From Ochotona princeps (Eukaryota), in assembly GCF_030435755.1 (NCBI RefSeq), contig NC_080843.1, forward strand, positions 68,734,485 through 68,798,484: a DNA stretch of 64,000 bases, written 5' to 3'. Numbering within the stretch: the first letter of the stretch is position 1; each line of letters opens with the position of its first letter. The notes beneath the pieces are model-generated. The model had not been told where the DNA came from. It saw nothing but the letters and a program-made list of their open reading frames with translations, and searched no databases. Below are positions 5,160-58,050 of this stretch, one piece after another. A program made the translations under genes and the position numbers.

Positions 5160-6290
5160 CTTCACCAAAGGGCAAGGACGACCAAGGCAGCTGTGAGGTG
5201 CAACTCAGGCTGGCACACAGGACACTGGGCGAGTCCTGCAATGCCCTCGGGGCTGAGAGCGGGCTGAGTGGGAGTTCCATCACGGCTTAGGAGCACGAAC
5301 GCCGGGCCAGCAAGGGACCAGGCGGAGCAGCGCCGTGTGCCTGCGCCCAGCACGAGCCCTTCTGCAGCCGCCTGCAGCCTCGCGGTGCCCGCTGCACGGC
5401 CCTGGCTGCACAGCCGCGGAGCTGCAGCGCGCCCCGGGACCCGCCCGCACGTACCCCCTCGGTCTTCATGTCCAGGATCTTCTCCACTTCGAAAACATCC
5501 TCTCCGTCCTCCTCGCTGTCTACCAATGTCTCCGCTCCTCCCGGGAGTCCGTCCCTCTCCGCGCCCGCCAAGCCAACTCCTTCCCCTCCCCGAAACTCCA
5601 CGTTGCTGGAGGCATCTGCCGCGGCAGCTGCGCTCAGGTCTGCGCCTTCTGCAGCCGGCGCCGCGGCCGCCATGGCCGGAGCCCCGCAAACCGCCGAGGA
5701 AAACCGACTGCGACACACACCGCGGGGCCGGCGCGAACTCCGCGCTGGGCCACAAGCCACTTGGGCGCCGTCACAGGGCCGTGAGGCAAGTAACCAATGG
5801 CGAGCTCGAGAACTTGGAGTGACACGCACGCGAGCCAATCACATAAAGGCGGGTGCAGCGGAGTCGCGCAGCGCCTTCGGGAAACGGGACGCCCGGAGCG
5901 GAAGGACGCGGTGTGGGGGAGGGAGTGAGGGCTGGCTCCTGGAGCGCTCCCGGCTCGTTCCCCGCTTTCTGACTCGGCGGGCCGGACCGGTGGCCGGAGC
6001 GTCGGGGACCGGACCTGGGGAGCTGAGGGAGAGGAACGATGGTGGGAGCTGGGGTTCCGGTGCCCGGAGCGTGGAGGACCGGAAAGAGAGGAACGAGCCT
6101 GGAAGCTGGCGTTCCGGTGCCCGGAGCGTGGGGGACCGGAAGGAGAGGAACGAGCCTGGGGAGCTGGGGGAGTGGCCCCGGAAAGGGACCCCGTCAGCTG
6201 GTGAAATGGGTGCCCAGGAATCCTTGACTGTTGCTTGGTTCACTGGTGTGGATGATCCGATCATGTAGAAGTCATCTGGCAGCTCCATTT
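5160..6290 (-). promoter_or_regulatory. MPHOSPH8: CpG island: MPHOSPH8 promoter, 5' UTR, exon 1 and start of intron 1
   Basis: Very high GC and CpG density (runs of ccgcgg, gcgcgc, cgccg) contrast with AT/SINE-rich flanks and surround the recognised start codon. It includes a GC-rich tandem repeat of about 57 bp at roughly 5990-6190. The TSS is not determinable from sequence alone, probably 5.75-5.95 kb. Confidence 0.6.
5455..5673 (-). CDS. MPHOSPH8: MPHOSPH8 (M-phase phosphoprotein 8 / MPP8) coding part of exon 1: initiator Met to first residues of the chromodomain, 73 codons, phase 0 at the donor
   Basis: The minus-strand ATG (plus 5673-5671) sits in Kozak context gccATGG. It translates to MAAAAPAAEGADLSAAAAADASSNVEFRGGEGVGLAGAERDGLPGGAETLVDSEEDGEDVFEVEKILDMKTEG. 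The tail EDGEDVFEVEKILDMKTEG matches the opening of the MPP8 chromodomain as I recall it; the next residues GKVLYKVRWKGY would be in exon 2, outside the window. The exon ends at a consensus donor GGG|GTACGT. It lies inside a CpG island. Confidence 0.8.
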
Positions 6291-7640: not shown

Positions 7641-8718
7641 AAAAAAGAAAGTGATGCTGTTATATGATCTGTGAATCATTGAAGAATGTAATAAGAAGAA
7701 AGTGTTTTGAAGAGGTGAAACGAACAAAAAAGATCAAAATCCATTTGATACACTTTCCGTGGATGGGGAGCTGTGTCTACTATAGGCAACAAATAGATGA
7801 TACAGTTCCAGAGGCCCTGGTTTTGTTTTTTAATCCAGTCTACTAATCATGATATTTGATTGATGAGTTTAAGCTGTTTACATTCAGGGTTAATACAAAT
7901 AGGTGGTAATTTGGTCCTGTCATTTTAGCAACGGGTTGTTCATTGGTTTAGTCTTCTGTTTTACTGAGATGTTCTTCACATTTGCCTTTGATTTAACTTT
8001 TCTTTACTGTGGAAAATTTTATTTCATTTTCAAAGACAAAGGAAAGCTTTGCTGGATATGTTATCCTGGACTGACAATTTTTTGCTTTTAGAATCTGGAA
8101 TATGTCACTCTATTCTATTCTGGCCTGTAGAGTTTCCTGTGTGAGGTCTCCTGTGAGTTTAATTGGCGTTCCTTTATATGTCAGTTGATTTTTTTCACGT
8201 GCACATTTAAGGATCTTTTCCTTATGTTCGATTGAAGAGAGCCTAACGATCATGTGTCGTGGTGAAGATTGCTTTTGGTCAAGCCTGTTGGGAGTTCTGT
8301 GCCCCTACTGGATATTGTTTCCCAATTCTTTCTCTAGAGTAGGGAAATTTTCCCTTATTATTTCATTAAATACACCTTTAATCCCAGCTTCTCTTACTGC
8401 ACCTTCTGGGAGTCCCATAACTCTTGTATTTGGCCTTTTAATGGTGTCTTTCAGTTCTTGAATACTTTTTTTTGGCCTGAACCAGCTCTGCTTCCAGCTT
8501 TTTCTTTCCCGCTGGTGACAGGAAATATCTTCTAATTCTGAGATTTTTTTCTTCTGCTTGCTTCATTCTGTTTTGGAGACTCTCCACTGTACTTTTAATT
8601 TGCTCCACTGCAGTCTTCATTTCTGATAGAACTGCTTTCATTTGATTCATTTCCAGTGTGACATATTCCTTCAATTCCTTGAATTCCTGCTTTACGTGCT
8701 TCTCATTGTTGATAAGTA

Positions 8719-9056
8719 GTTTTTTTTTTTTTTAAGATTTATTTTTATTACAAAGTCAGATATACAGAGAGAGGAGGAGAGACAGAGAGGAAGATCTTCC
8801 GTCCGATGATTCACTCCCCAAGTGAGCCACAACGGGCCGGTACACGCCAATCCGATGCCAGGAACCAGGAGCCTCTTCCAGGTCTCCCACGCGGGTGCAG
8901 GGTCCCAATGCATTGGGCCATCCTCAACTGCTTTCCCAGGCCACAAGCAGGGAGCTGGATGGGAAGTGGAGCTGCTGGGATTAGAACCGGCGCCCATATG
9001 GGATCCCAGGCCGTTCAAGGTGAGGAATTTAGCCGCTAGGCCACGCCGCCGGGCCC
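8719..9056 (-). mobile_element. C-repeat SINE, antisense, inserted into the L1 with a 13-14 bp TSD
   Basis: A T-run plus aagatttatttttattacaaagtcagatatacagag.. through ..gccacgccgccgggccc. It is flanked by gataagtagtttt on both sides. Confidence 0.85.
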
Positions 9057-9693: not shown

Positions 9694-11399
9694 CAGGTCT
9701 GGGTTCTTATGTTAGATTTCCACCATGGTTTCTCTAGCCTCAGCTCCTGGCTCACCAGTCTCCCCCTCCTGTGATACCATGCTGAGGCTGCACCGTTGTC
9801 TGTACAACCTTTCTCCCACTTCTGGTTGGAGTAGGGAGACACCAGGTGTCCTGTATAGCTAGATTTTGTTGGTGGTGCTGATCTTGCCGGAACTTGTTGA
9901 CCGTTAGGTTTGAGGGCTACACGGATCTGTTTTTACCCAAACAATGCCATAGTCGGTATTATTTTCCTGTGGAACCAGTGCAATACAATGAGCTGGGTGA
10001 GTTCTCGCTGAGCTCAGAACATGCACAGCTCACTATTGTGTCCTGCAGTCTTAAATTCTTTGCCACACTGCCAGAAATTGTGCCTGATGTGCCACTACTA
10101 CTGTTCTTGATCTGCTGGCCATCAGATCTGAGGGCTACCCAGACCTGTCTTGGGTGGAACCTGTAGGGTGCCACATTATTGCAGTTTACTGAGCCAGAAA
10201 TGACTTCATTCCCATCTCAGCTTGTGCTCAGTCCTTTCCCTTGCCTTTGCCTCCTTAAGCAAAATGGTGCCCAATAGGTTCTAGTGGGTGGACTGGACTG
10301 TGAAATCCACCCTGTTCCCGTTCCTGCAATGTCCATCTGGATCTGCCACTCTTTCTCTGTGGAGGTGAGGGCACTGGAGGTGAGGGGCTGGATCTGCTCC
10401 AGACCCAGTATGACTCCCAGGCTTTAGTCTGGAACGGGAGGGGCTGCAGGAAACAGTTAAGTCACCAGCCTGGTGGGATTCCAGCTGACCAATGGCACAC
10501 CTGAACGGACATTCCTTACATAATTTGGGCATAGACAGCTCCTTTGCCAGCCCACGTGTCTAGAGGAGTATAAAACTCCCGGACACATATCTCAGCTGCG
10601 CTTTTCGCCCCCATCTTCCTTTCACTCTGCCCGAAGGCCCAGGAGTGGATTTTGCAATAAATCTTCTGTTACAACTATGAATAACTTGCTGATATTATTC
10701 CACCAGCGGGCGGGCGGTCAGCGGTCATCATCTAACACTCTGCTCCTGGTCAAATCAAACAGACCAGCAGGATGGGCAGTTCTTTGCCTGGGTTCACCTC
10801 CGGAGCTCCTGGTAAATGTCCCTTCCCACCTGGTTGCTGGTGGCATTCTGGCTACTAGTGGAATTCAGATCACTGTTTGCTGAATGCTGCTGGGGTATCA
10901 GTCACTGCAACACCACACCATTGTGTCCGCTGCTTTCCTGTGTCTGTCAGCCTTCAGGTACCCCTCTGCTGTTGTTCTGTCCTCTCCTATTTCCTGGAAT
11001 GTGCCCTGTCTGCTTTACATTGTCTAATATTTCTCCGTCTGTTTAAAAGTGTCCTCACCCTATTCTGCCATCTTGATTCTCCAATGAGATCTTTATAAGA
11101 TTAGGACACCCATTGGACTGATAAAATGTTTCTGTCCCAAGGACGTGATAAACGGTTTTGTTCAATGTTAGCGGAGTGCTGCTAGGAAAACCCACTCAGG
11201 AGAGAATTTTTCTTCGTTTTCAATTTCAGACTTGCAACTAAGATCTTACGTGCCTGGAAATCTTTAAGGCAGTGAACTTGTCATTTCTGTGTTTTTGCAT
11301 GTGGATTTAATGGGCCTCTCAGTTCTGTCACAAGCTATTCCCTTCTGATGCATAAACTGCTGGAGTTGCCAAAGGCTGACTAAAGGTGGACTGGTTATG

Positions 11400-13200
11400 G
11401 AAAGGGGTGTACCAGGCAGGGCTGAGCAAACCTTAACTCACAAGCAAGAACAGAAATCAGGATGGAGCGCAGGTCATGCCGAGCTAGGCTCTTACATTGG
11501 CTGGTTTGCATGAGCCAGGGAGGCCAGGACACAGTATCTAAGGCAAAAGCCAAGACAGGTGAGGGGCTGTGCCAAAATGGGTCAGAGCAACCACTAGCAC
11601 GCACACGATCAGTGGCTGGGAGGAGGCCCGGTTTGGGAGCTAAGAGAATACCCTGGCTGGGTTGGGATTCCCACTGGTGAGTGCGGGGGCCGGAGTGGGG
11701 GCTGCAATTGGGTCTGGATATGGCTGCAGTGACCCTAGGCACAATTGTGGACAGGGGCTGGGGGCTCCAAGTTGGGCTAGACCCCAGCACCATCTGGTGC
11801 TCTGGAGGACCAGGGTAGATGTAGAACAGACTAGGCTAGGTCTCTGCCTCTACTGAGCCATGTGTGAGCAGTGTGTGGTTTGGACGAGCCTTGGCTGGGC
11901 TGAAACATCCAATAGTAAGGACCGGAATGGGTTGAAGGCCAATCAGGACAGGAGGTGGACTAACTAGGGCTGGCCCATGAACCCACCGGCATGTGCAAGA
12001 TCTGGCATTGGGAGAGGTTCTGATGGAGGAGCCTGGGCAACTCCTGTGGCAGGACACAGTCCCTGCAGGTGAGAGCAAAAACCACAATAGGGAGCAGCCC
12101 AGACGAGGCCAGGGAAAGGTACCCACCAGCATACATTTGGCACAGGTCGGGGACAGATGAGGCTGAACTAGTTCACATCACCTGCTGGTGAATCCAAACA
12201 CCAGAACAGAGTGTGGGCCGGGCCATGTTCGAATGCAGCACAAACCAGTACACATTAGGGCTAGGACGGGGTGCTGGCTGGGCTGGGCTGGGTTGTAGCT
12301 CCAACCAGCAAGAGCTGGAATTGATAGTGGGCTGGGCCAAGCTACAGCTCCCACTGGCAAATGCTGAGGTGAGGGGGGCCAAGTCAGACTAGACTGCAGT
12401 GCCCAACCAGCACATGTGAGAACCAGTGGAGGAGGGGGCTAAGCCGGTAGGGGGAATGTGGAGGGCTCCCCTGCTGGACAGCCACTCCCACTAGAGAGTG
12501 TGAGTTGGGATGGGGGCAGACCAGACCAGTCAGGGCTACAACACCTGTGGGCCTCATGTGAGCTAGATCAGGGAAAAGCCAGGCTAGGCTTACTGCTCCG
12601 ACTGGTATATGCATAAGTTAGAGAGAGGGCAGGTTGGTTGGGCTTTGCCGCAACATCAGCTGGCAGATGCTAGCACTGAGGGCTAATTCTCTCATGTTAT
12701 TACCACAGAATCACCTGCGGAGAGCATGATCTGGAAGTGGGAGTGGCCCAGTAGGGAAAAAATGGGCACCTCCCTCTTGGGTTATCACTCCCACTGAAGA
12801 GCATGAAAACCAGGATAGGGGCAGGCGTGTATAGACAGAACAGCACTCACCAGCATGTGTGTGGGCTGGATAGTAGGGCTGGTTGGGTTGAACTAGGCTT
12901 CAATGCCCACTGACATGTATAACAAGTGAATGGGATGTGGAACAGACTGAACAAGTCTGCTGTACATACTGGCAAGCATGGGAACCAGGGGGCAGGTCAG
13001 CTGCGGGTTATTGGGAGTCACCCTGACTAGGCTGCAGCTCCCACTGGTTTGCGAGAAGGCCAAGTGTGTGCTGGGCAGTATCAGGCTTGACTGCAACATC
13101 CATCGGTTTGTTGGAAGACAGGGCTAGAAACAGAACTGACCCAGCAATTGCAATGACCAGCATATGCATAAGCTGATTGGGGCGATGGACTGTATTGGCA
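11400..13200. repeat. Degenerate tandem array, about 57-62 bp units, about 25-30 units
   Basis: Successive units share the frame c(c/a)c..c(t/c)gg..atgtg....gggctgg...ctgggct..(c/t)tgcag. Examples are ctcccactggcaaatgctgaggtgaggggggccaagtcagactagactgcag, ctcccactggtttgcgagaaggccaagtgtgtgctgggcagtatcaggcttgactgcaacat, and cccactgacatgtataacaagtgaatgggatgtggaacagactgaacaagtctgctgtacat. Confidence 0.6.
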
Positions 13201-13600
13201 AACTCACACAAGAATCAGGTCTGGGATCACTTAGACAAAGTTTCTTTGGGGATCCCTCCAACTGAACTGCTGATCTCAGAACCCCAACCAGGAAGAGACT
13301 ATGTCAGCCAGTGGATTCTGAAGAGATTTCATTGCGCTTGGAATGGCAAGATTGGCAGCAACTCAGAACTGTTGAACTATCAAAACTGCTTGAGCAGGAC
13401 CCTCGGAGCGTGCCCCACGTTGAGGACCTGGGATGGGTGGGAGGCTAGTTGGGGCTTCTCTCTCTGTCTATCCCCTGCCCCCAGATCCGGAAAATAATAA
13501 TAATATTAATGTGAAAACAATGGTCTTACCCACTTTCCTGTATCCCTTGACCCTTTGTGCCGTAATCAACTATGTAAAGATTATCAAAATGAAATAATTT

Positions 13601-15539: not shown

Positions 15540-16460
15540 GGACTTCCATCGGTAAGTTTGGAGGGGAGAACAAGAGTGAGAAAAGTGGGTCTGATAGCAG
15601 AATCGGGAGGAGGGAGCAATGTGGGCTTATCCTTGTGGAACTGCAATCTCTGCTTGCTAGCCCAAGAACTTGGATGGGGTCAGGCCTTGCGGGGGAGCTT
15701 AAGGGTCACCCCAGCTGAGTTGGGGTTTCCATTGCTGAGAATGAGAGTAGGGTTGAGTGCAGCAGGCTACAGTTTGAATGTATATGGCTACAGACCGCTC
15801 TGATGTGTGTGTGCACTGGGATGGTGGAGCAACAGATTGGTCTTGATTTCAGCCCCCACTGGTACTTGTGAGAGCCAATTTGGGTGTAGAACAGGCCAGA
15901 CTAGGTCTGGACTCCTGCTGAACTATGTGAAAGCTGTGTCTGGGCGCAGACCAGGCAGCATTGGGCTTCAACAACCAACAACAAGAACCAGAATGGGTGT
16001 GGTCAGTTGAGTAAGGTCACTGTTCTCACCAGGATAGGAAATGGACAAAGTCAACCTGGGCCAACGGCCCATTGGTGTGAGCCAGAACTGCCACTGGGAG
16101 GAGACTCAATGGAGGAGCTTGGGAAACTCCTTAACTGGGATGCAGCCCGTGCAGGAGAGCGCAAGAAGCAAGGCAAGGAGCAGTCCGGACCATGCCAGCT
16201 TACATTACCTACTAACAAATACATGTGGGTAGGTCTGGGGACAGACCCGTCTAGACCAGCACATAACATCCACTGGCAGACCTGAGAAGCAGGGCAGAGT
16301 GCGGGAGGAGCCAGGTTGGGCAGCAACCTCAGCCAGCTCACATAAGGATTAGGACAGCAAGGAGGCTGGGCTGGAATAGGCTGCAGTGACAACCAACAGG
16401 AGCTGGAACAGGGGTCAGACTAGACCAGGCCAAGCTGCACAATAAGACTGTGGACGCTGA
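15540..16460. repeat. Second block of the degenerate 60-bp tandem-repeat family seen at 11.4-13.2 kb
   Basis: The same unit architecture (..ccactgg..gtg.ga...gggc..gg..ctgg...ctgcag), for example gcagtgacaaccaacaggagctggaacaggggtcagactagaccaggccaagctgcacaat. Together with 11.4-13.2 kb it may be one array split by SINE insertions. Confidence 0.5.
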
Positions 16461-16469
16461 GGGTGAGGC

Positions 16470-16900
16470 AAATCATGTCAGCCTGGGCCCAGACGGGTAC
16501 ATGAATCCCAGGGACAGGGGATCTGACAGAGCTTGGGTAGCTTGGCTCAGGTCATGCATGGGGCCCACATGTGTGGTGGGGATGGGTTCCTGAGTCCCAG
16601 GGATAGGGAAACTGGTGGGGTGTGGGTAGCTTGACCCAGATCCTGGGACTCACCTTCTAGGTGGGTGTTGGGTTCATGAGCCCCAGGGGTGGGGATCTGG
16701 CAGGGCTCAGGTCACCTGGCCTGGGTCCTAGGGCCTAACTGCAAGGTGAGGGCAGGTTTATGAGCCCCAAGGGTAGGGGATCTGGCAGGGCTTGGGTCTC
16801 CTGTCCCATGCCCTGGGCCCACCTACTAGGTAGATGTTGAGTCTGTGAGCCCCAGGGGACAGGGATTCAGTAATACTTGGGACACCTGGCCCAGCCACTT
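16470..16900. repeat. Tandem repeat, about 85-bp unit x about 5
   Basis: Successive units run catgaatcccagggacaggggatctgacagagcttgggtagcttggctcaggtcatgcatggggcccacatgtgtggtggggatgggtt / cctgagtcccagggatagggaaactggtggggtgtgggtagcttgacccagatcctgggactcaccttctaggtgggtgttgggtt / catgagccccaggggtggggatctggcagggctcaggtcacctggcctgggtcctagggcctaactgcaaggtgagggcaggttt / atgagccccaagggtaggggatctggcagggcttgggtctcctgtcccatgccctgggcccacctactaggtagatgttgagtct / gtgagccccaggggacagggattcag... Confidence 0.8.
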
Positions 16901-17354: not shown

Positions 17355-17465
17355 CATTGTTAGATACATATATATATATATGTATATATGTATATATGTA
17401 TATATATGTATATATGTATATATGTGTGTATATATATACATATATATATGTATGTATGTATATTT
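17355..17465. repeat. (TA)n/(TG)n compound microsatellite; a second copy of the same type at 24595-24730
   Basis: The run tatatatatatgtatatatgtatatatgtatatatatgtatatatgtatatatgtgtgtatatatatacatatatatatgtatgtatgtatat. It generates the low-complexity YIYVYIY ORFs in the track. Confidence 0.9.
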
Positions 17466-19066: not shown

Positions 19067-19879
19067 ACCTAAATTATTTTGCAAATAGAATTGGAAGCTC
19101 CTATTTGCCTAGTTCTGCCATTCGCTACTAGGCGGGAAGTGACTCTTACTGATTGAATAAAGTGCATGATGCTTAAACTGGGTATCTGTGTTCCACTACA
19201 GTTGATTGGATCATTTGTGTTGTGCACTGATGTAAGCTTGGTTGATTGAACAATTCACATCATGTGCAGTGCCTTCTTAGTTGGTAGGATATTAGCAGCT
19301 TAAGCACCTCTAAACACAGCTGACCAGAGCTTCTCCCCTTTTCCACATGTGGTGGGATGGACAGTTCACTGGTTGGTGCTGGTGAGTGAATAAAGACTCC
19401 CAAGCTTCTAAGAATCTGCCTCTGACTCATTTCTGGAATAGATTTGGTCAACTCGCAACATCTCTACACAAATTTGCCTTTCAGATAGACAACAATAAAC
19501 ATTTAAGAGAAAAGAGAAAGATCTTGGGGGTCATTTCAATTAAGGGAAAGATGGCTGAGGAACTGAATGTTGAGTGGTCACAATGTCACCACAGAGTACA
19601 GGCTGTTGGGGGAGTACCGTCTTCACAATCAAAGCCCACCCATCACTGCTGTCCTACCAAAAGTAACGCAACCCGACTGTGGGCCTCCTGTTGACAAAAA
19701 TGTTGGTGCTGAATCTATGCCCTTCCGATCTAATGTCCCTTTGTAAAGACACAGAGAACAGAGAAAAGGGAAACAGATCTAGAATGTAGGAAATTCTGCA
19801 CAACAGTTGAGCCTACCGCTGCTGTAGGCAACTTGCCGTGTATCTAGGCAAATGTTACGCTACTGGGAGAAAACCAGCC

Positions 19880-20740
19880 AGCAGCTGGCAGGCATTCTGG
19901 GCCTGGTTGATGCCAAATTTGTGTTAACTATAGCAGTATGCCAGCTTAGTTGCTTATTCTACGTTTTTCAAAAGGTAAGTTGGGAAGGCAGGGAACTCCC
20001 AGCTGGAACACACCATGCCAACCCTACTTGGCATGGTCTGCCCTTCGTCCCAGCCTTTCCATGTGCCAACAGATGTCCAGCCTTCTCCAAGCCCCAGTTC
20101 CCACAAGTGTCATATTGGTTCCTGTCAGTTCTGTGCTCCAGCCTGACTTGCCTATCCCCACCCCCATTCTCCGCATAAACAGGTGGGTGCTGCAGTCCCA
20201 CAGAGGCAAGCCCACAATTCTCATACAGGATCTGCCCCCCAGATCCAGTTCTGTCATGTTCTGGTGCGTGCTGCAGCCCAACCTGACACTTACCGACAGG
20301 TACTGCAGCCTAGCTCAGACAGACATGTCCCCAAGTCCAGTTTTCAGATGTGCCAGCAGGTGGTGAAGGCTGTTTAGCCCAGCCTAGGTCTCTCGTGTGG
20401 GTGGGTGTCTTGGGCTGACCTCTGGGTTTTCCCCCTTTAAACCATTCTGCCTCGGCTCCCTCACCTACCTGTGGAAGACCCCCAGAAGTCATTCCTCCCC
20501 TTTTAAACATGCTCTCAGACCCTCCTATTCCAGCATGTGCCCAGAGCCCCTAATCCCATATGCTCCTCAGGGGATCTGTAACCCACCCGCCTACTCCAGG
20601 GTTGGGATGGTGTGTTCCAGTTGGGAGTTCCCTGCCTTCCCTACTTACCTTTTAAAACACGTAGAATAAGCAATCAAGCTGGCATACTGCTATAGTTAAC
20701 ACAAATGTGGCATTAACCAAGCCCAGGGCGCAAAACCCAG
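19880..20740. repeat. Large imperfect inverted repeat: arms of about 150 bp (19880-20030 and 20590-20740), about 90% identical, spacer about 560 bp
   Basis: The left arm reads ..ctgggcctggttgatgccaaatttgtgttaactatagcagtatgccagcttagttgcttattctacgtttttcaaaaggtaagttgggaaggcagggaactcccagctggaacacaccatgccaaccct. The reverse complement of the right arm reads ..ctgggcttggttaatgccacatttgtgttaactatagcagtatgccagcttgattgcttattctacgtgttttaaaaggtaagtagggaaggcagggaactcccaactggaacacaccatcccaaccct. Confidence 0.85.
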
Positions 20741-21584
20741 AGCTGGGAATGGGGCTGGTAGGGGAACTCTGGAGATTCCCCTGCTGGGTTCCAGTTCCCA
20801 CTGGCAAAAGCAACAACCACAGCTGTGGGCAGTGAGGTTTCCTGGAGGACCTTCCCAACTGGACTGCTGGACTAGGACCCCGGCCACTGGGAAAATCATA
20901 GAACGTGTGGTCCAACCTTGGAGTGCATGTGTCAGGACTGGGCCTCCTCAGTTGCTGATGCCTGTGCAGTGGACGCCGTGTCCAGATGCACACGGCAGAA
21001 ATGTCAGCCAGCTCAGCTAGGCCGGCAGGGCATGTCAACTCCCTTGTCAGAGAATGGACAGCAGAACAGGTTGGACCATTCTAGCCAAGCTTTGTGGCAC
21101 ATCTCTGTCTGTGGATGCACTAAGGTGGACTTTGTCACCCAATAGGCCTTGCAAAGATTTTTCTCAACCCTGTAGCAATAAAGCCAGCAACTTCCCAGAA
21201 CTATCATAACCACTGAAGTGGCACCCTCAGAACACTGCTCCCCACATTGGGGCTCTCAAAGGCATCATCGAAAAACCATCCCCACCCCTGGGTGCTGATG
21301 AAGTCTGACAGCATGGAGCCCCTCCGGTTTCCACAGGAGGGAAAAAAAAATGAGAACATTTGCCCCACCCACCTTCCTCCCACCCACACCCACATGGGCA
21401 TGCATCCCTGTCTGCTATGTAAGCCAGATTTTTAAAAATAATAATTTAAAAAAACAGAACCATTGAATATGTTTCAAGTCCAAAGAGGGAAAAGAAGATG
21501 TCTCTAAATTCGTAAGAACTCAGAGTATGATAATGTGTTTCAAACATTTGCATTTTATTTATTTGTGTATTTATCTGTACTTGA

Positions 21585-23945: not shown

Positions 23946-24273
23946 ATTTATTGGCATTTTGAGGTATTTCTGGTTTGCTGGAAAAGGCAGGCTTATCATT
24001 TATATGTACCTATTCCCACTTGGGGTGTCTCCAACCCCAGGTGCCCTCGCTGCCTGGCAGGACAACCACCTCAGCCTGTGTGGCTCTAGCCTGAGAACAT
24101 GGCTCAGGATCTCTAGGCTGTCTCCCAGGGGAAGGCAAGGAAGAATGAAGATGCAAATATTTGCATTTGAAGTTTTACTGGTTAATTATACGAATTTTTG
24201 CTTTTATGTATTTTTGAAATAAAAAGCATCACATATACTCAAGGCAAAAATTTCTCCATTCCAAAGTACTTAA

Positions 24274-24602: not shown

Positions 24603-25679
24603 AAGAAATGTGAATATAAATATATAATATATATAATATAGTTTATATATACACATATATATGCATATATACATATATGTATACATATATATGTATATGT
24701 GTATATGTATGTATACATATATATATATGAAGTGGCCCAGAGAAGAGGTATCCCCACAGTAAGGAGCTTTTGTAAAACACAACTTTACCAACTAGGAGTT
24801 GTAGGAAGGTACTTGTAAACATTTGTGAAAAGCTGAGACTAAAAACAGAAATTCGGAGCAAAGCTCGGTTGTGAGGCTGACACCCCACACTGAAGTGAGG
24901 ATTCCAGTCCAGCTCACTGCCAATGCATCCTGGGAGGAGCTGAAGATGGTTCAGGTCGCTGGCACTGTGTTTTGTGGGCTAAGGAGTTAATTAGCGCTCG
25001 TTAAGCTGAGCAGTAACAGGAAATGGGCTTGCCGCTAAAAGCACCTGGTCTAATGGGACTCATTGGCATCCTGTTGTTTGGTTAAAGGGTTTGGGGGAAA
25101 GAGTGTAAAAGGAGTAATAAAGGGAGACTTCGGGAGACTTCCACCATCACTGGTCATTCCCACACCCTCTCCGCGTCCATGTTACTGGCTCTGCTAGCCG
25201 GAGCAGCTGTGGGGGAGACAGATGGAGTTTGGAGCTCCTGGTTGCTGATTCTTGCTGTCACTTGGCGGGGGAGTGAACCAGAATATGGAAAATCTGTCTC
25301 TATCTCTGTTGCTCAGCCTTTCAAGAGTTTATAAGCTCTAAGAAGTCAAATAAGCAAGCAGTAAGAAATACATTTTGTTAGAAAATTGTGAACATTCCCA
25401 CACAGTTCATTTCATAACGTTCATTTTTCATGAATCTTTGAAGATGCCTTGTGCACGTAGGGCTTTGTGAGTTGCTCTACCAGAATGATTGAACCTAAGG
25501 GAGTGCGGGCCCCTGAGTTACTGTGGGTGAAGCGGGCTGGGGCCCGCAGCTGGCATCCAAAGGGGTCAGGGCAGGCTGATCCTGGAGCCTGAGCCCTCCA
25601 CCTCAGGGTCTGACACTGGTTCCTGGTGGAACTGTAAGGAGTTATTCCAATATCCTTCCCTGGACCCAGCGCGCCATTC

Positions 25680-34934: not shown

Positions 34935-36092
34935 CTGGGTTTGTAGGCTGAAGAGCTTCCTGCAGGTCACAGCACTCATCCAGCTTTGATGACTGGCCAC
35001 GGCCTGTCCTCCTCCTACTGCCTCCAAGACTTGAATTTTCTTTTTGCTTCCTTTGGTTGCACTGTATGGAGCCACTGACATCTTACTGTCTTTGACAGCT
35101 GTATCCAGCTGCATTAACATTACGTTTGGAAGCTGATCACTTGGATGGAAACTGTCTACTTCGACGGCACCCTCAAAATTCAAGGCAGGACGACGTTTGA
35201 CTTGCAAGGCAGCATGACGTTTGACTGGCAAGGCAGAACCAAATCTGACATTTCTGGCAGGAGCATTGTCAAGGGTATGCCTGAGAGATTGCCTTTCAAA
35301 AAAGCCGCTTGAACTCAAGCTCTCATTAGCCATGGAATCATGGGATTGGGAGGCTATGCTGCGACCAGTGTTAGAGAATCTGGGGGGAGACAGGGAGAGA
35401 CCCTTTTGAAAAGCGACACCAGCAGAGCTAAAGCTCAACCTTGGCTGGGGTGCAGGTAGAGCTGAGACTACAGCCCCAAGCCCGTCCCAAGAGGGCCCTG
35501 CTGTGACGACCTGGGGCAGCTGGCTGGGATGAGAACCCCTCTCTTGGTCGTTGCTAGCAAGGCTTAATTTTGTTGGGCGAGAAGCATGAGAACTAAGGAC
35601 CTCAGGTAGTGATGGGGAAAGAGACATGAAAGCTGGGCAAGGGAGTGGAGCAGGGAAGGCAGGAAAAGCAGAGGAATGAATGCCCCCAGGTAGTGGTGCG
35701 GGAGGAGGGAGGGACGCTGCGCTAAGGAGTGGAGCAGGGAAGGTGGGAGAAGCAGAGGAATGAATGCCCCCAGGTAGTGGTGCGGGAGGAGGGATGGGTG
35801 CTGCACTAGGGGGTGGAGCAGGGAAGGTGAGGGAGATGGCGGCTCCGGCACCGGCAGGCAGAGGAAAGCTGTTGGCAGTCTCTTCTGGTGGTGGCGTGGC
35901 TTCTCCTAAGCAGTTTCTCATCCAGTACCCTTCAGGAGAGAAACTCCTGTCTCTTAAATCCAATGGCATTTCCGCGTCTTCACATTCATCACATGTGAGA
36001 AGCTCTTCCTCTAGCTCATAGGCACCAAGACCAAACAGAGCAGAATGTTCCACCTGCACTGCGTCCCCTGCAGGGGATGCCGAAGGAAGATG
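34935..36092 (-). CDS. PARP4: PARP4 large proline-rich exon, 386 codons, phase 0/0; contains an in-frame 28-codon tandem repeat
   Basis: Acceptor tgttgtttttatctgcag|CAT with an in-frame TGA 12 codons upstream; donor CAG|GTACCT. The open frame overlaps the listed 411-aa ORF. It begins HLPSASPAGDAVQVEHSALFGLGAYELEEELLTCDECED... and ends ...QSWMSAVTCRKLFSLQTQ. The next exon starts in phase 0 with DGFW, which reproduces the human junction ..LLSLQT|EDGFWKLTPELG as I recall it. The ORF-track stop at 34824 lies in the intron. Confidence 0.75.
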
Positions 36093-39719: not shown

Positions 39720-39835
39720 GAGACCAGGCTCCAGGCTCCAGGCTCCAGTGTCCAGACTCCAGACTCCAGGTTCCTGGCTCCAGGCTCCTGGCTCCAGGCT
39801 CCTGGCTCCAGGCTCCTGGCTCTTGGCTCTGGATG
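39720..39835. repeat. Minisatellite (GGCTCCAG / CTCCAGG)n of about 13 units, in a PARP4 intron
   Basis: The run ggctccaggctccaggctccagtgtccagactccagactccaggttcctggctccaggctcctggctccaggctcctggctccaggctcctggctcttggctct. Confidence 0.9.
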
Positions 39836-46668: not shown

Positions 46669-47265
46669 TGATACGCATGTTCACATTATTCGTTTTAGGA
46701 TTTTTACAGATTCCTTTTTTTTCCCTCCTTCCTGATAATGGCTCTTTTCCAAAAAGAGCTAGATAAAATGTTAAACAACGTCACTATCACATGACTTAAA
46801 CTTACAAAGCATCCTGGGTCTATGCCATTAGCCAATAGATTCTTTTTTTTTTTAATTCTTTTATTTTATTTTTTTTAACTAGGCCTTTGATTGCTGAAGC
46901 CTGTGCAGTGGATCATATGCCAAGATGCACACGGCAGACATGACAGATCGTGGAAGCCTGCCCATAGAGGGCAGAACAAGTTGGACAACACTCCTAGCTG
47001 AGCTTCGACAGCAGGTGTCTGGGCAAGTCTGGAGGGATCACCTCAACTGTGGAACAATGCAATCAACAGCATCTCAGAACTACTGAAACCACCAAAGCAG
47101 TACCCTCGCAACACGCTCCACCTCAGGGACCTCAGGACGACACTGCCAGGCCATCCCACAGCCTCAGCTACAGCTGTGGTTAGGCTGCTGGCTGTGGCCT
47201 TCTCTTCCTCTCTCTTCGTCCCCCAGAAACAGGAAGAATAGAAAGGAAGATTAGAAACAGTTATA

Positions 47266-47598: not shown

Positions 47599-49666
47599 AG
47601 AAACAGTTGTCTGGGCCTGGTGGCGTAGCCTAGTGGTTAAAGTCCTTGCCTTGCACGTGCCCAGATTCCATATGGGTGCTGATTCATGTCCCGGCTGCCC
47701 TGCTTCTCATCCAGCTCCCTGCTTGTAGCCTGGGAAATTAGTTGAAGACGGCCCAAAGCTTTGGGACCCTGCATCCCCGTGGGAGACCTGGAAGAGGCTC
47801 CTAGCTTTGGATCTGTTCAGCCCTGGCTGTTGTGGCCACTCGGAGAATGAATAAGATGAAAGGCTTTTCTCTGTCTCTCCTTCTCTCTGCATATCTGACT
47901 TTCTAATAAAAATACATATCTTTTTTTTAAAAAAGGTATAGACCAAATGTGTGTGTTTTTTAATGTATTTTATTTTTATTGCAATTGCAGATATACAGAG
48001 AGGAGGAGAGACAGAGAGGAAGATCTTCTGTTCGATGATTCACTCCCCAAGTGGCTGTAATGGCCGGTGCTGTGCCAATCTGAAGCCAGGAGCCCCGAGC
48101 CTCTTCTGCATCTCCCATATGGGTGCAGGGTCCCAAGGCTTTGGGCCATCCTCGATTTCTTTCCCAGGCCACAAGCAGGGAGCTGGATGGGAAGTGGGCC
48201 ACTGGGATTAGTACGGGTGCCCATATGGGATTCCGGTATGTGCAAGGTGAGGACTTCAGCCACTAGGCTACCACTCCGGGCCCTCAACAAATACATCTTA
48301 AAAAAAAAAAAAAAAAAAAGAATGTGCTGTACTTGAGATGCCCACATCCCACACCGGAGAACCAGTTCAGGTCCATGCGACTCCCCTTCTGATTCAGCTT
48401 CCTGCTGGAAGAAGTAAATGATGGCTCAAGTACTTGGGCATCTGAGCCCATATGGGAGAACTTGAAAAAGCCCTTGGCTCCTGGCTCCTGCCTGGCCACA
48501 ATGTAGGCATCTATGGCGTGACCTAGCAGATGGAAGATCTCCCTGGCTCTCCTTGCTCTTCATTTAACTCTGGCTTTCAAATAAATAAGCACCTTTCAAA
48601 AACAGCCAGCCAGCACCAAGAGTCAATAGAGAAATGTGAACAGAAGTCATGATGATATGTAACTTTACATCCATTTAGGATGGCTGCTATTAAAGAGACA
48701 AAAATGAAAAAAAAAAGGAACAGTGCCGATGTGTGGCTAGTGGAAATACGCAATGGTGCAGCCGCTGAGGAAGACAGCATGGCAGCCCTCAGCCACCCAC
48801 GGGGTTACCTCAGGATTCACCAGTGTCACTTCTTAGCTGCCCAGAAACGAATGCTGAGTTCAGACAGATCCCTGCATGCCAACCTTCACACCAGCATCAT
48901 TCACAACCACCAAAGGGTAGAAGCAACCCAAGGGTCCATCCTCCGATGACCAGGTGCTCAACACGTGGGCATGGACCATTATTCAGCCTGAAAGTCAAGG
49001 AAATTCTGGCGCACAAGCTGAGCCTTGAATACATTATGGTAAGTGAAATAAATCAGTCACCCAAGGGACTTATGTTTACAGGGTGCACCTGGAACAGGAA
49101 GGCTGCGAGAGCCCTGAAGCACATGACAGGTGCCAAGGCACAAGGGAGAAGAGGGACTGGGAGCTACTGTGTAAAGGGCATGCGGTTTCTGTTCGGGAAG
49201 ATGAAAAGGTTCTGCACAGGACACGACTACAACATCATTGGATGTCAGCTGCCATGCGCCAGCTCCAGCCCCGTGGCGTGCCAGGGCCACAAGCACGCTA
49301 CTGTGTACGCCGTACCCATGCTATAGAGCTGTGCACTGCACAGCCATTACACATCGGAACATTCTGTGTCTCATTCACCACAATAAAAATCCCAGCAAAA
49401 CACACATCGTATCTCACCTCCAAAAATCAACACACGACACTTCGTAAAACAGAAATTGAACTGTTAGCTGGGCAAGTGGCCAGATTCCACAGGGATGGTG
49501 CTCTTGCCAGCGGAGCAGCACAAGGGCAGGAGCCCACGTGTCTGCAGGTCTGGTCTGTCCACAGCACCCGTTTCCAGCCCAGCAAACACGCTGGTTCTCA
49601 TCATTTAGACGTGTGACGCTCATCTTCCGCATAAAAGCACAAAATGATTGTGAGTTAACCACGTAC

Positions 49667-52427: not shown

Positions 52428-53978
52428 ATTAATGGGCATACCTTCCTTTTTAGAAAACCATGCTTGATCATTTTAATGTTTAAAAATATTCATTATATAT
52501 CTATACATTCTATAGCATTCCAATCCTGTACTTTACTATGCATGATGTTCTGGGTCAGATCTATGTAGTTACACGGTTTGAGTCAGTTCAGCTGCTCTGT
52601 AGATCATTTGTGCAAAGTGAGCCATGGGGCCTAGTGTGGTGGCCTAGCGGCTCAAGTCCTCACCTTGAACATGCCAGGATCCCATATGGGCGCCGGTTCT
52701 AATCCCAGCAGCTCCACCTCCCATCCAGCTCCCTACTTGTGGCCTGGGAGAGCAGTGGAGGACGGCCCACATTCTTGGAACCCTGCACCTGCGTGGGAGA
52801 CCTGGAGGAGGTTCCTGGCTCCTGGCTTTGGATTGGCACAGCTTTGCGCTCACTAGGGGAGTGAATCAGTCGACGGAAGATCTTCCTCTCTGTCTCTCAT
52901 CCTCTCTGTATATCTGCCTTTGTAATTAAAAATAAATAAATCTTTAAAAAGAAAAGGGAGCCTAGGCGGGTAGCAATGGCAGGAGCAGCTTGGACCTACA
53001 AGGGCTGGCATTTAAAATTTTCTTCCAAGTTTTATTAATTTTGTTGGAAAGGTAGATTGTATGGAGAGGACAGAAACATCTTCCATTGACTGATTCACTC
53101 ACCAAGTGGACACAAAGGGGACGGAGCTAAGCTGATCTGAAGCCAGGAATTTCCTCTGGGTCTCCCACGTGGGTGCAGGGTCCCAAGAATGTGGGCCATC
53201 CTCCACTGCTTTCCCAGGCCACAAGCAGGGAGCTGGATGGGAAGTGGAGCAGCTGGATCATAAACTGGTGCTCCTTTGGGATCCTGGTGCTTGCAGGGTC
53301 AAAGACTAGCCAATGGAGCCATGGCGCTGGGCCCTAGGGCCAGCCTTCACGCATGCCCTTTGCAGTCCCTGTCTGTTGGACTCATGTCCCGCTCCATCAT
53401 AGTGGCTTCAGGCCGCCTACTGGATGGCCCGGAAGATGAAAATAACGAGGATAAGATGCCGTGGACTCCTCTCCACTGAAGTGACCCCTGCTGCTGGCAG
53501 AGATGTGTCTGGACATTGGCCTGCAGGACAGCACTGCCTTCTTCCAACAGTGACCTGATGCTGAGACGAGACAATGCTTCACAGTGTTCTACGACTGTGC
53601 TGATCGCAAATGACCCATTCTTATTTTGGGGACACCCTGTGAATCAGACCGAGGGTCTTGTGTTTGGCTCAGCTAGCAATAACACTAACCATTGCTATAC
53701 CACTTCTAGACTAGAACAGCCCCGATTTTAAACCCTTTACAGGGTTTAAATCAGCTTACTGCACATGGTAGTACCAGGAAGTAGAGACAGCCGCAGACGA
53801 CAGATGAGGACACTCAGGCACCCAAACTCGAAGCACTTGCTCAAGGCAACACACGGAGCTTGAGCGTGACAGAGCTGGGCTCGGGCCCAACTTCCTCTGT
53901 GCCAGGCCCTTGCTTCTCCGACAGGGTGCGGTCCCAGCAAGGAGGAAGACTTACGGGATGGGGCTCAGGCATGCTCAC

Positions 53979-57914: not shown

Positions 57915-58050
57915 AAAAAAACAAAACCAACTAACCAACCAACCAACCAACCAATCAACCAACCAACCAACCAATCAACCAACCAATCAACCAACCAATC
58001 AACCAACCAACCAACCAACCAACCAACCAACAAACAAACAAAACAGCAAA
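57915..58050. repeat. (CCAA)n microsatellite with periodic TCAA interruptions
   Basis: The run ccaaccaaccaaccaaccaatcaaccaaccaaccaaccaatcaaccaaccaatcaaccaaccaatcaaccaaccaaccaaccaaccaaccaaccaacaaacaaacaaaac. It is the source of the QPTNQ repeat ORF 57862-58185. Confidence 0.9.

Follow-up and report, generated by a model that had tools for sequence, protein, structure and literature searches.

A long inverted repeat between PARP4 and MPHOSPH8 of Ochotona princeps as the probable scar of a 572-bp inversion with inverted duplication of the adjoining 129 bp

We interpret the long inverted repeat found in a 64-kb stretch of Ochotona princeps DNA (the whole stretch analysed, hereafter the window) as what remains of a single inversion event, in which 572 bp were turned around and the adjoining 129 bp were duplicated in inverted orientation. 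On the sequence comparisons presented below we give this reading a probability of roughly 0.78. An ancestral order A-B-C-D would have become A-B-C'-B'-D in a lagomorph lineage, where A is the left flank up to 19896, B a block of 129 bp, C a block of 572 bp amounting to about one unit of a local array, and D the next unit. C would have been inverted, and a second, inverted B left at the far breakpoint. A local inverted duplication was among the explanations offered in a preliminary description of this DNA; our comparisons support it and allow it to be made more specific, as a duplication coupled with inversion of the intervening 572 bp.

A repeat search of the window places the left arm at 19897-20025 (plus strand) and the right arm at 20598-20726 (minus strand), 129 nt each, with 572 nt in between, and the whole unit measures 830 bp. 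The arms are 92.2% complementary, with 10 mismatches and no indels. When the region was compared with the window by blastn, the arm pair was recovered at E = 9e-50, well outside the range of chance, together with no other significant match, which confirms the large inverted repeat that the preliminary description had located within 19880-20740. Its estimate of about 90% identity is borne out as well, whereas its arms of about 150 bp proved too long (129 nt) and its spacer of about 560 bp slightly too short (572 nt). In a gapped local alignment with wider flanks the similarity ends abruptly at both the outer and the inner arm ends. No further copy of the arms or the spacer at such identity was detected within the 64-kb window by blastn, nhmmer or an Rfam scan, which within this window speaks against the arms being oppositely oriented copies of a common dispersed repeat, the alternative that the preliminary description had named as its refutation, and a protein search with the left-arm ORF for further copies gave no match. 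The mirror-image peptides reported on opposite strands, FVLTIAVCQL(S/D)CLFYVF, are indeed present in the ORFs 19852-20178 (plus) and 20652-21038 (minus), for which we found no Pfam match and no database homologue; they are a trivial by-product, since the arms are inverted copies. The region is also predicted to fold, as had been proposed, into one long hairpin with a 129-bp stem (-400 kcal/mol, z = -18). This fold is due to the inverted repeat itself and merely restates it. A splice-donor-like AAAAG/GTAAGT occurs in both arms, at 19972-19982 (plus) and 20641-20651 (minus), facing the spacer; it may go back to an exon-intron boundary in the source of the mir-1949-like block described below.

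By its gene neighbours, the inverted repeat falls into the intergenic space that separates PARP4 from MPHOSPH8. It lies past the PARP4 stop (~29.2k), at a distance of some 8.5 kb, and upstream of exon 1 of MPHOSPH8 (~5.5k), at a distance of some 14 kb. The window has a CpG observed/expected ratio of 0.33 and is mammalian nuclear DNA. A full-length PARP4 protein maps collinearly to the minus strand from 63,645 to 29,218 (residues 638-1781 of 1786), Pfam places its VIT domain at 63.3-63.7k, and the homologues are named PARP4 in databases. Positions 29203-63645 (minus) hold the 3' two-thirds of this gene, with VIT, vWA and a Pro-rich exon at 34.8-36.1k, and the terminal exon ends at about 29203; an 84-bp tandem repeat of 2.3 copies (35640-35829) is present in the large exon. 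At the other side, the ORF 5290-5838 (minus) contains the MPP8 chromodomain N-terminus and matches PDB 9H77 and 3QO2 (E = 4e-5). MPHOSPH8 exon 1 (minus) lies in a GC-rich segment, 5290-6265, that resembles a CpG-island promoter, and a 57-bp tandem repeat of 2.5 copies (6029-6169) is found just upstream of the exon. K/E-rich coiled-coil ORF fragments at 8113-8731 (minus), for example '...KQEFKELKEYVTLEMNQMKAVLSEMK...', resemble a LINE-1 ORF1 remnant and may represent one.

As outgroup we used one locus of 86.5 kb from the chromosome-scale NCBI assembly GCA_020740605.1, located via full-length PARP4. It is a primate locus because Alu-type 7SL SINEs are present, and we take the species to be Lemur catta. 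Its PARP4-MPHOSPH8 gap spans 9.9 kb. Window positions 19532-19820, a conserved ancestral intergenic element that forms part of flank A, are orthologous to 84744-85030 of the primate locus (nhmmer E = 5e-20; blastn 74.7% over 87 nt), where the counterpart sits about 1.4 kb upstream of MPHOSPH8 exon 1. Two further segments are anchored in the same way, 11167-11309 to 85445-85573 and 24180-24224 to 84319-84363. Between the anchors at 24.2k and 19.8k the primate has about 470 bp, mostly Alu, versus 4.4 kb here. The mir-1949-like sequence discussed below, the arm, the spacer, its array and the repeat T were found nowhere in the 86.5-kb primate locus, and the material involved is therefore lineage-specific. 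The primate locus confirms that the flank is ancestral and polarises nothing about the inversion itself. A search with the PARP4 last-exon ORF recovered one 903-bp Logan contig, too short to span to the repeat.

The left outer end of the repeat is informative about the ancestral order. In E-value mode, the Rfam model of mir-1949 (RF03854) aligns to 19884-19952 (plus) over model positions 1-70 of 70, with 62.7 bits and E ~1e-13. The match starts in flank A, 13 nt short of the left arm, and continues for 56 nt inside the arm; of the 13 outer nt, 11 equal the consensus. At curated thresholds Rfam gave no match: the gathering threshold of the family is 100 bits, and both the left copy and a truncated copy in the right arm (20675-20726, 28.3 bits) fall below it. 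These two are the only mir-1949 matches in the window. In the right copy the 5' stem of the model is gone exactly at the arm end, and the hairpin no longer folds. Since the homology crosses the left outer arm end, this end is a breakpoint in pre-existing sequence and not the terminus of an element; for the same reason, the model spanning 19896/19897, we regard the A/B junction as ancestral and the left arm, contiguous with flank A, as the parental copy of B. Block B carries the 3' three-quarters of a diverged mir-1949-like hairpin, and its duplication would have given the truncated second copy.

The left copy resembles the mir-1949 family in that it aligns at all 70 model positions and has the family's hairpin, and differs from it in its score (62.7 versus 100 bits), its locus, its diverged miRNA region and the truncation of its second copy. 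The mouse gene, Mir1949, is located close to Matr3 on chromosome 18. For cattle, a published table places bta-mir-1949 in one interval of BTA7 together with CTNNA1, SIL1, MATR3, SNORA74 and PAIP2 (PMC11460123). The copy described here is flanked by PARP4 and MPHOSPH8 and is not at the MATR3/SNORA74 locus. The mature-miRNA region of the left copy departs from the family consensus at several places, the presumed seed position among them. By sequence and position, this copy is a diverged paralogue and not the family orthologue. A MATR3 retrocopy was considered and rejected: tblastn with a MATR3 sequence found nothing in the window. A degenerate pattern of the mir-1949 core had 0 matches in collections of metagenomes, prokaryotic genomes and viral contigs, with no mammalian copy there. 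Beyond the cattle table, the literature offered nothing usable on where mir-1949 lies in the mouse genome or on a possible derivation from a transposon.

By nhmmer, the spacer (20026-20597, our inverted segment C') belongs to a local tandem array, of which it makes up a short stretch. The array is highly degenerate, its units follow one another at intervals of 450-600 bp, and it also occurs at 11.6-13.3k and 15.6-16.5k. Tandem Repeats Finder detected nothing in the spacer, the array being too degenerate and visible to nhmmer only. The first paralogous array (11591-13280, plus) was used to infer the ancestral order, and the second (15650-16487, plus) is an old duplicate of 11591-12393 (nhmmer E = 5e-69; blastn ~64% identity). 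Within the spacer, 20026-20411 is array-like by nhmmer and 20412-20597 is without paralogue in the window. Of the paralogous matches found at other places of the window, those to the spacer fall without exception on the minus strand (7/7) and those to the right flank without exception on the plus strand (9/9), so that the spacer lies upside-down relative to its own right flank. This flank, the array unit D at 20727-20920 (plus), has plus-strand nhmmer matches at 11594-11680, 11976-12097, 12716-12807 and 13195-13288, among others. The remaining array units of the window all run in a single direction.

We then reconstructed the proposed ancestor by joining the reverse complement of the spacer to position 20727 onwards, with the right arm removed, and compared it by nhmmer with the paralogues of the window. 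This join, rc(S)+D with S for the spacer, produced four junction-spanning collinear alignments, to the units 12836-13276 (E = 7e-8), 12383-12805 (E = 2e-7), 15843-16188 (E = 1e-4) and 11780-12097 (E = 3e-4), which are weak (about 55-65% identity) and amount to independent support from about three units, given that the 11.8k and 15.8k units duplicate each other. Seven control joins (S+D, D+S, D+rc(S), A+S, A+rc(S), A+D and A+B+rc(S)) gave no junction-spanning alignment. In a multiple alignment the paralogues pass the restored junction column gap-free, and the right-arm copy B' is absent at the C/D position from every paralogous unit. Because the paralogues span the restored junction, we consider C/D ancestral, on an order inferred from diverged paralogues of the same window and not from an un-inverted orthologue; the right arm, between the old end of C and D, would be the derived inverted copy. 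Contiguity of B and C (the present junction 20597/20598) is assumed by parsimony, the adjoining 20412-20597 being the part of the spacer without paralogue in the window.

The array is regularly accompanied by another repeat, which we call T. The array unit next to the inverted repeat is followed by T at 20920-21460 (plus), which matches 46873-47188 (E = 1e-18) and 13296-13598 (E = 6e-8) by nhmmer. T has five plus-strand copies in the window (13.3-13.6k, 16.9-17.35k, 20.9-21.45k, 26.6-26.9k and 46.8-47.2k), contains an AATAAA-like motif and is missing from the 86.5-kb primate PARP4 locus. Each array is followed by it, and the composite of degenerate array and T occurs three times (11.6-13.6k, 15.65-17.35k and 20.0-21.45k), about 4.1-4.4 kb apart, in one orientation and on both sides of the ancestral element 19532-19820. 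Together with SINEs, these composites give a PARP4-MPHOSPH8 gap of about 23 kb, versus about 10 kb in the primate. The composite may be a transposable element, perhaps an LTR whose U3 is repeated, or may have arisen by segmental duplication at this locus.

Other repeats are abundant. The window contains about 40 copies of a tRNA-derived SINE that matches the rabbit C-repeat consensus, as expected for DNA of a lagomorph or a near relative. A tail-to-tail pair of these SINEs at 47600-48283, with arms of up to 105 nt that are 78-89% complementary, draws hairpin-like matches from several unrelated miRNA families, most of them of plants, when Rfam is run permissively; here the arms are true oppositely oriented copies of a dispersed repeat, unlike those of the inverted repeat at 19897-20726. 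A tRNA-Glu(CTC) called by ARAGORN at 52625-52718 coincides with the head of the C-repeat SINE copy 52625-52926, and we read it as the tRNA-derived SINE promoter region and not as a tRNA gene. The (AT/ATGT)n microsatellites at 17364-17463 and 24614-24728 cause spurious sub-threshold Rfam matches to mir-297, mir-3149, mir-1277 and mir-568. Simple repeats are found at 1-86 ((CCCCAG)n), 39724-39822 ((CCAGGCT)14) and 57925-58039 ((AACC)29).

One rival explanation is a foldback or MITE-like element, which the preliminary description listed among its options: a non-autonomous DNA transposon would have inserted here, and the 129-bp arms would be its terminal inverted repeats. Like MITEs and foldback transposons, the locus has long inverted termini, which end sharply, around a short non-coding interior, its size is compact (830 bp), and the region is lineage-specific, missing from the orthologous primate interval. 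We nevertheless regard a transposon as highly improbable. The target site duplications that were to be sought at the ends are lacking: allowing 8 nt of slop at each end, there is no direct repeat of at least 5 bp, only trivial 4-mers that cut into the arms. The arms are a single pair in a 64-kb window that holds about 40 SINE copies, and other arm copies with the same ends were found neither there nor in the 86.5-kb primate locus. The mir-1949 homology extends 13 nt past the left 'terminus', and the interior is native sequence, a piece of the local array: once flipped, it lines up with the right flank outside, as the cargo of a transposon would not. It would be only marginally easier to accept that two oppositely oriented insertions of a dispersed repeat took place independently. 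The window is repeat-rich, inverted SINE pairs do occur in it (as at 47.6-48.3k), and the mir-1949-like sequence, being paralogous to a locus elsewhere in the genome, must have been copied at least once. However, both copies would need exactly the same inner end, and the truncation of the right copy would have to coincide exactly with the point at which it meets the sequence that once followed the flipped spacer. Complementarity of the arm-adjoining sequences is the signature of one event, and no further copy exists in the window or the 86.5-kb primate locus. We thus judge two insertions to be very unlikely.

Equally doubtful is a history in which only an inverted B was inserted, the spacer having kept its ancestral orientation and never been inverted. 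Such a history saves one event at the DNA level, and array units of mixed orientation are conceivable. Against it stand the result of the flip, with 0 junction-spanning alignments for S+D versus four for rc(S)+D, and the single orientation shared by all other array units in the window. Finally, inverted duplications are a known artefact class of long-read assemblies, for example through chimeric foldback reads, which are expected to give 100%-identical or near-identical palindromes without spacer. With arms that are 8% diverged and 572 nt of unique, correctly structured local sequence between them, an artefact of this kind is the least credible of all the explanations considered and can practically be set aside. 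The reading that we prefer remains the inversion of C with inverted duplication of B.

How such an inversion came about can be addressed from its junctions. Both novel junctions, J2 (20025/20026) and J4 (20726/20727), are blunt, with at most 1-2 nt of microhomology to their reconstructed partners. Most likely, as we infer, the inversion took the staggered-break route. The two strands would have been cut 129 nt apart on the B side, with a flush break at C/D, and the ends would have been filled in and then sealed by non-homologous end joining; this model agrees best with the blunt junctions. It is the account given by Ranz et al. (2007, PLoS Biol) for Drosophila, where 17 of 29 inversions carry ancestrally unique sequence duplicated in inverted orientation at their breakpoints, the duplications measuring 46 bp-1.9 kb and often affecting one breakpoint region only (PMC1885836). 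Our locus is alike in that a block which was ancestrally single-copy and bordered one breakpoint now sits, in inverted orientation, at both ends of the inverted segment, that the duplication is confined to one breakpoint region, a situation found in 12 of their inversions, that 129 bp falls within their range, and that the junctions are blunt with no mediating repeat. It differs in that 572 bp are inverted instead of chromosomal segments, in that it concerns a mammal and a degenerate tandem array with breakpoints at equivalent unit positions, and in that the ancestral state is taken from paralogues and not from sister species.

Two other routes would lead to the same product. An inverted B could have been inserted, followed by recombination between the B copies, or the replication machinery could have switched template twice. 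Template switching (FoSTeS/MMBIR, serial replication slippage) produces small alleles with inversion and inverted duplication in human disease genes, and the A-B-C'-B'-D arrangement and sub-kilobase size seen here are typical of two switches at one fork. The junctions of template switches usually show 2-5 nt of microhomology, however, compared with at most 1-2 nt here, and a nearby 10-mer is wrongly oriented to prime a switch. This 10-mer, ACCATGCCAA, ends up 4 nt before the B/C breakpoint and 2 nt before the C/D breakpoint in the reconstructed ancestor, so the two copies would have been direct repeats 574 bp apart before the inversion. After it, they form a 10-bp perfect mini-palindrome ACCATGCCAA/TTGGCATGGT with a 6-nt loop over J2 (ACCATGCCAA-CCCTAC-TTGGCATGGT, 20012-20037). 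Since the 10-mers were direct beforehand, they could not have primed a strand switch, and we rejected fold-back priming at the J2 mini-palindrome on this ground and because its sides are unrelated beyond the 10 bp.

None of the three routes accounts for a shared 10-mer at both inner breakpoints. Over its inner ~41 nt the left arm shows homology to the last part of an array unit (this stretch aligns to the end of C), and the breakpoints lie at equivalent positions of adjacent units, which implies that almost exactly one array unit was flipped. The 10-mer may be a breakage-prone motif, or a coincidence of the array periodicity. That breakage was directed by sequence, through a cleavage preference of a nuclease, a topoisomerase or a transposase-like enzyme or through a structure-prone motif, seems to us very unlikely, if slightly less so than the rival explanations weighed above. 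If true, sequence-directed breakage would lead to unit-precise inversions in tandem arrays, which might recur in this repeat family.

The divergence between the arms is 7.75% (Jukes-Cantor 0.082), comparable to that of the youngest SINE pairs of the window (93-94% identical). If neutral change proceeds at 2.2-4e-9 per site per year, as we assume, the duplication would be roughly 10-19 million years old, an age which is a minimum if gene conversion has acted between the arms.

Another question regards the function of the locus, if any. It could now work as a hairpin-RNA or miRNA gene, a hairpin RNA precursor having been the third option of the preliminary description. It would then either yield small RNAs from a long hairpin or act as a functional extra copy of mir-1949. 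The very stable predicted 129-bp stem (z = -18) and the full-length mir-1949-like hairpin retained by the left copy speak for such a role. Yet the Rfam score of 62.7 bits is well under the family threshold of 100, the mature-miRNA region is diverged from the consensus, and the sequence is not at the canonical mir-1949 site. The left hairpin (-23.4 kcal/mol, z = -1.4) shows no gain in stability over shuffled sequence, and in the right copy the hairpin is broken. Moreover, the 10 differences between the arms include 4 transversions, with no pattern of pair-preserving change. A gene of this kind is thus scarcely to be expected, and the structure most likely has no function. Were the locus transcribed, it would yield a long double-stranded hairpin RNA with the 129-bp stem, and as DNA the arms could mediate re-inversion of the spacer.

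The type of rearrangement is already known from staggered-break inversions, and the locus is a further example of it. What we describe looks like a neutral structural scar in intergenic, repeat-rich, lineage-specific DNA, with little bearing on biology in general. It is of some use as a clean small mammalian inversion that carries its own polarity marker in the form of an inverted breakpoint duplication, an architecture best documented for large Drosophila inversions. In addition, it shows a miRNA-like hairpin that would have been partly duplicated as a by-product of an inversion, and it cautions that a long, sharp-ended inverted repeat is insufficient to call a transposon.
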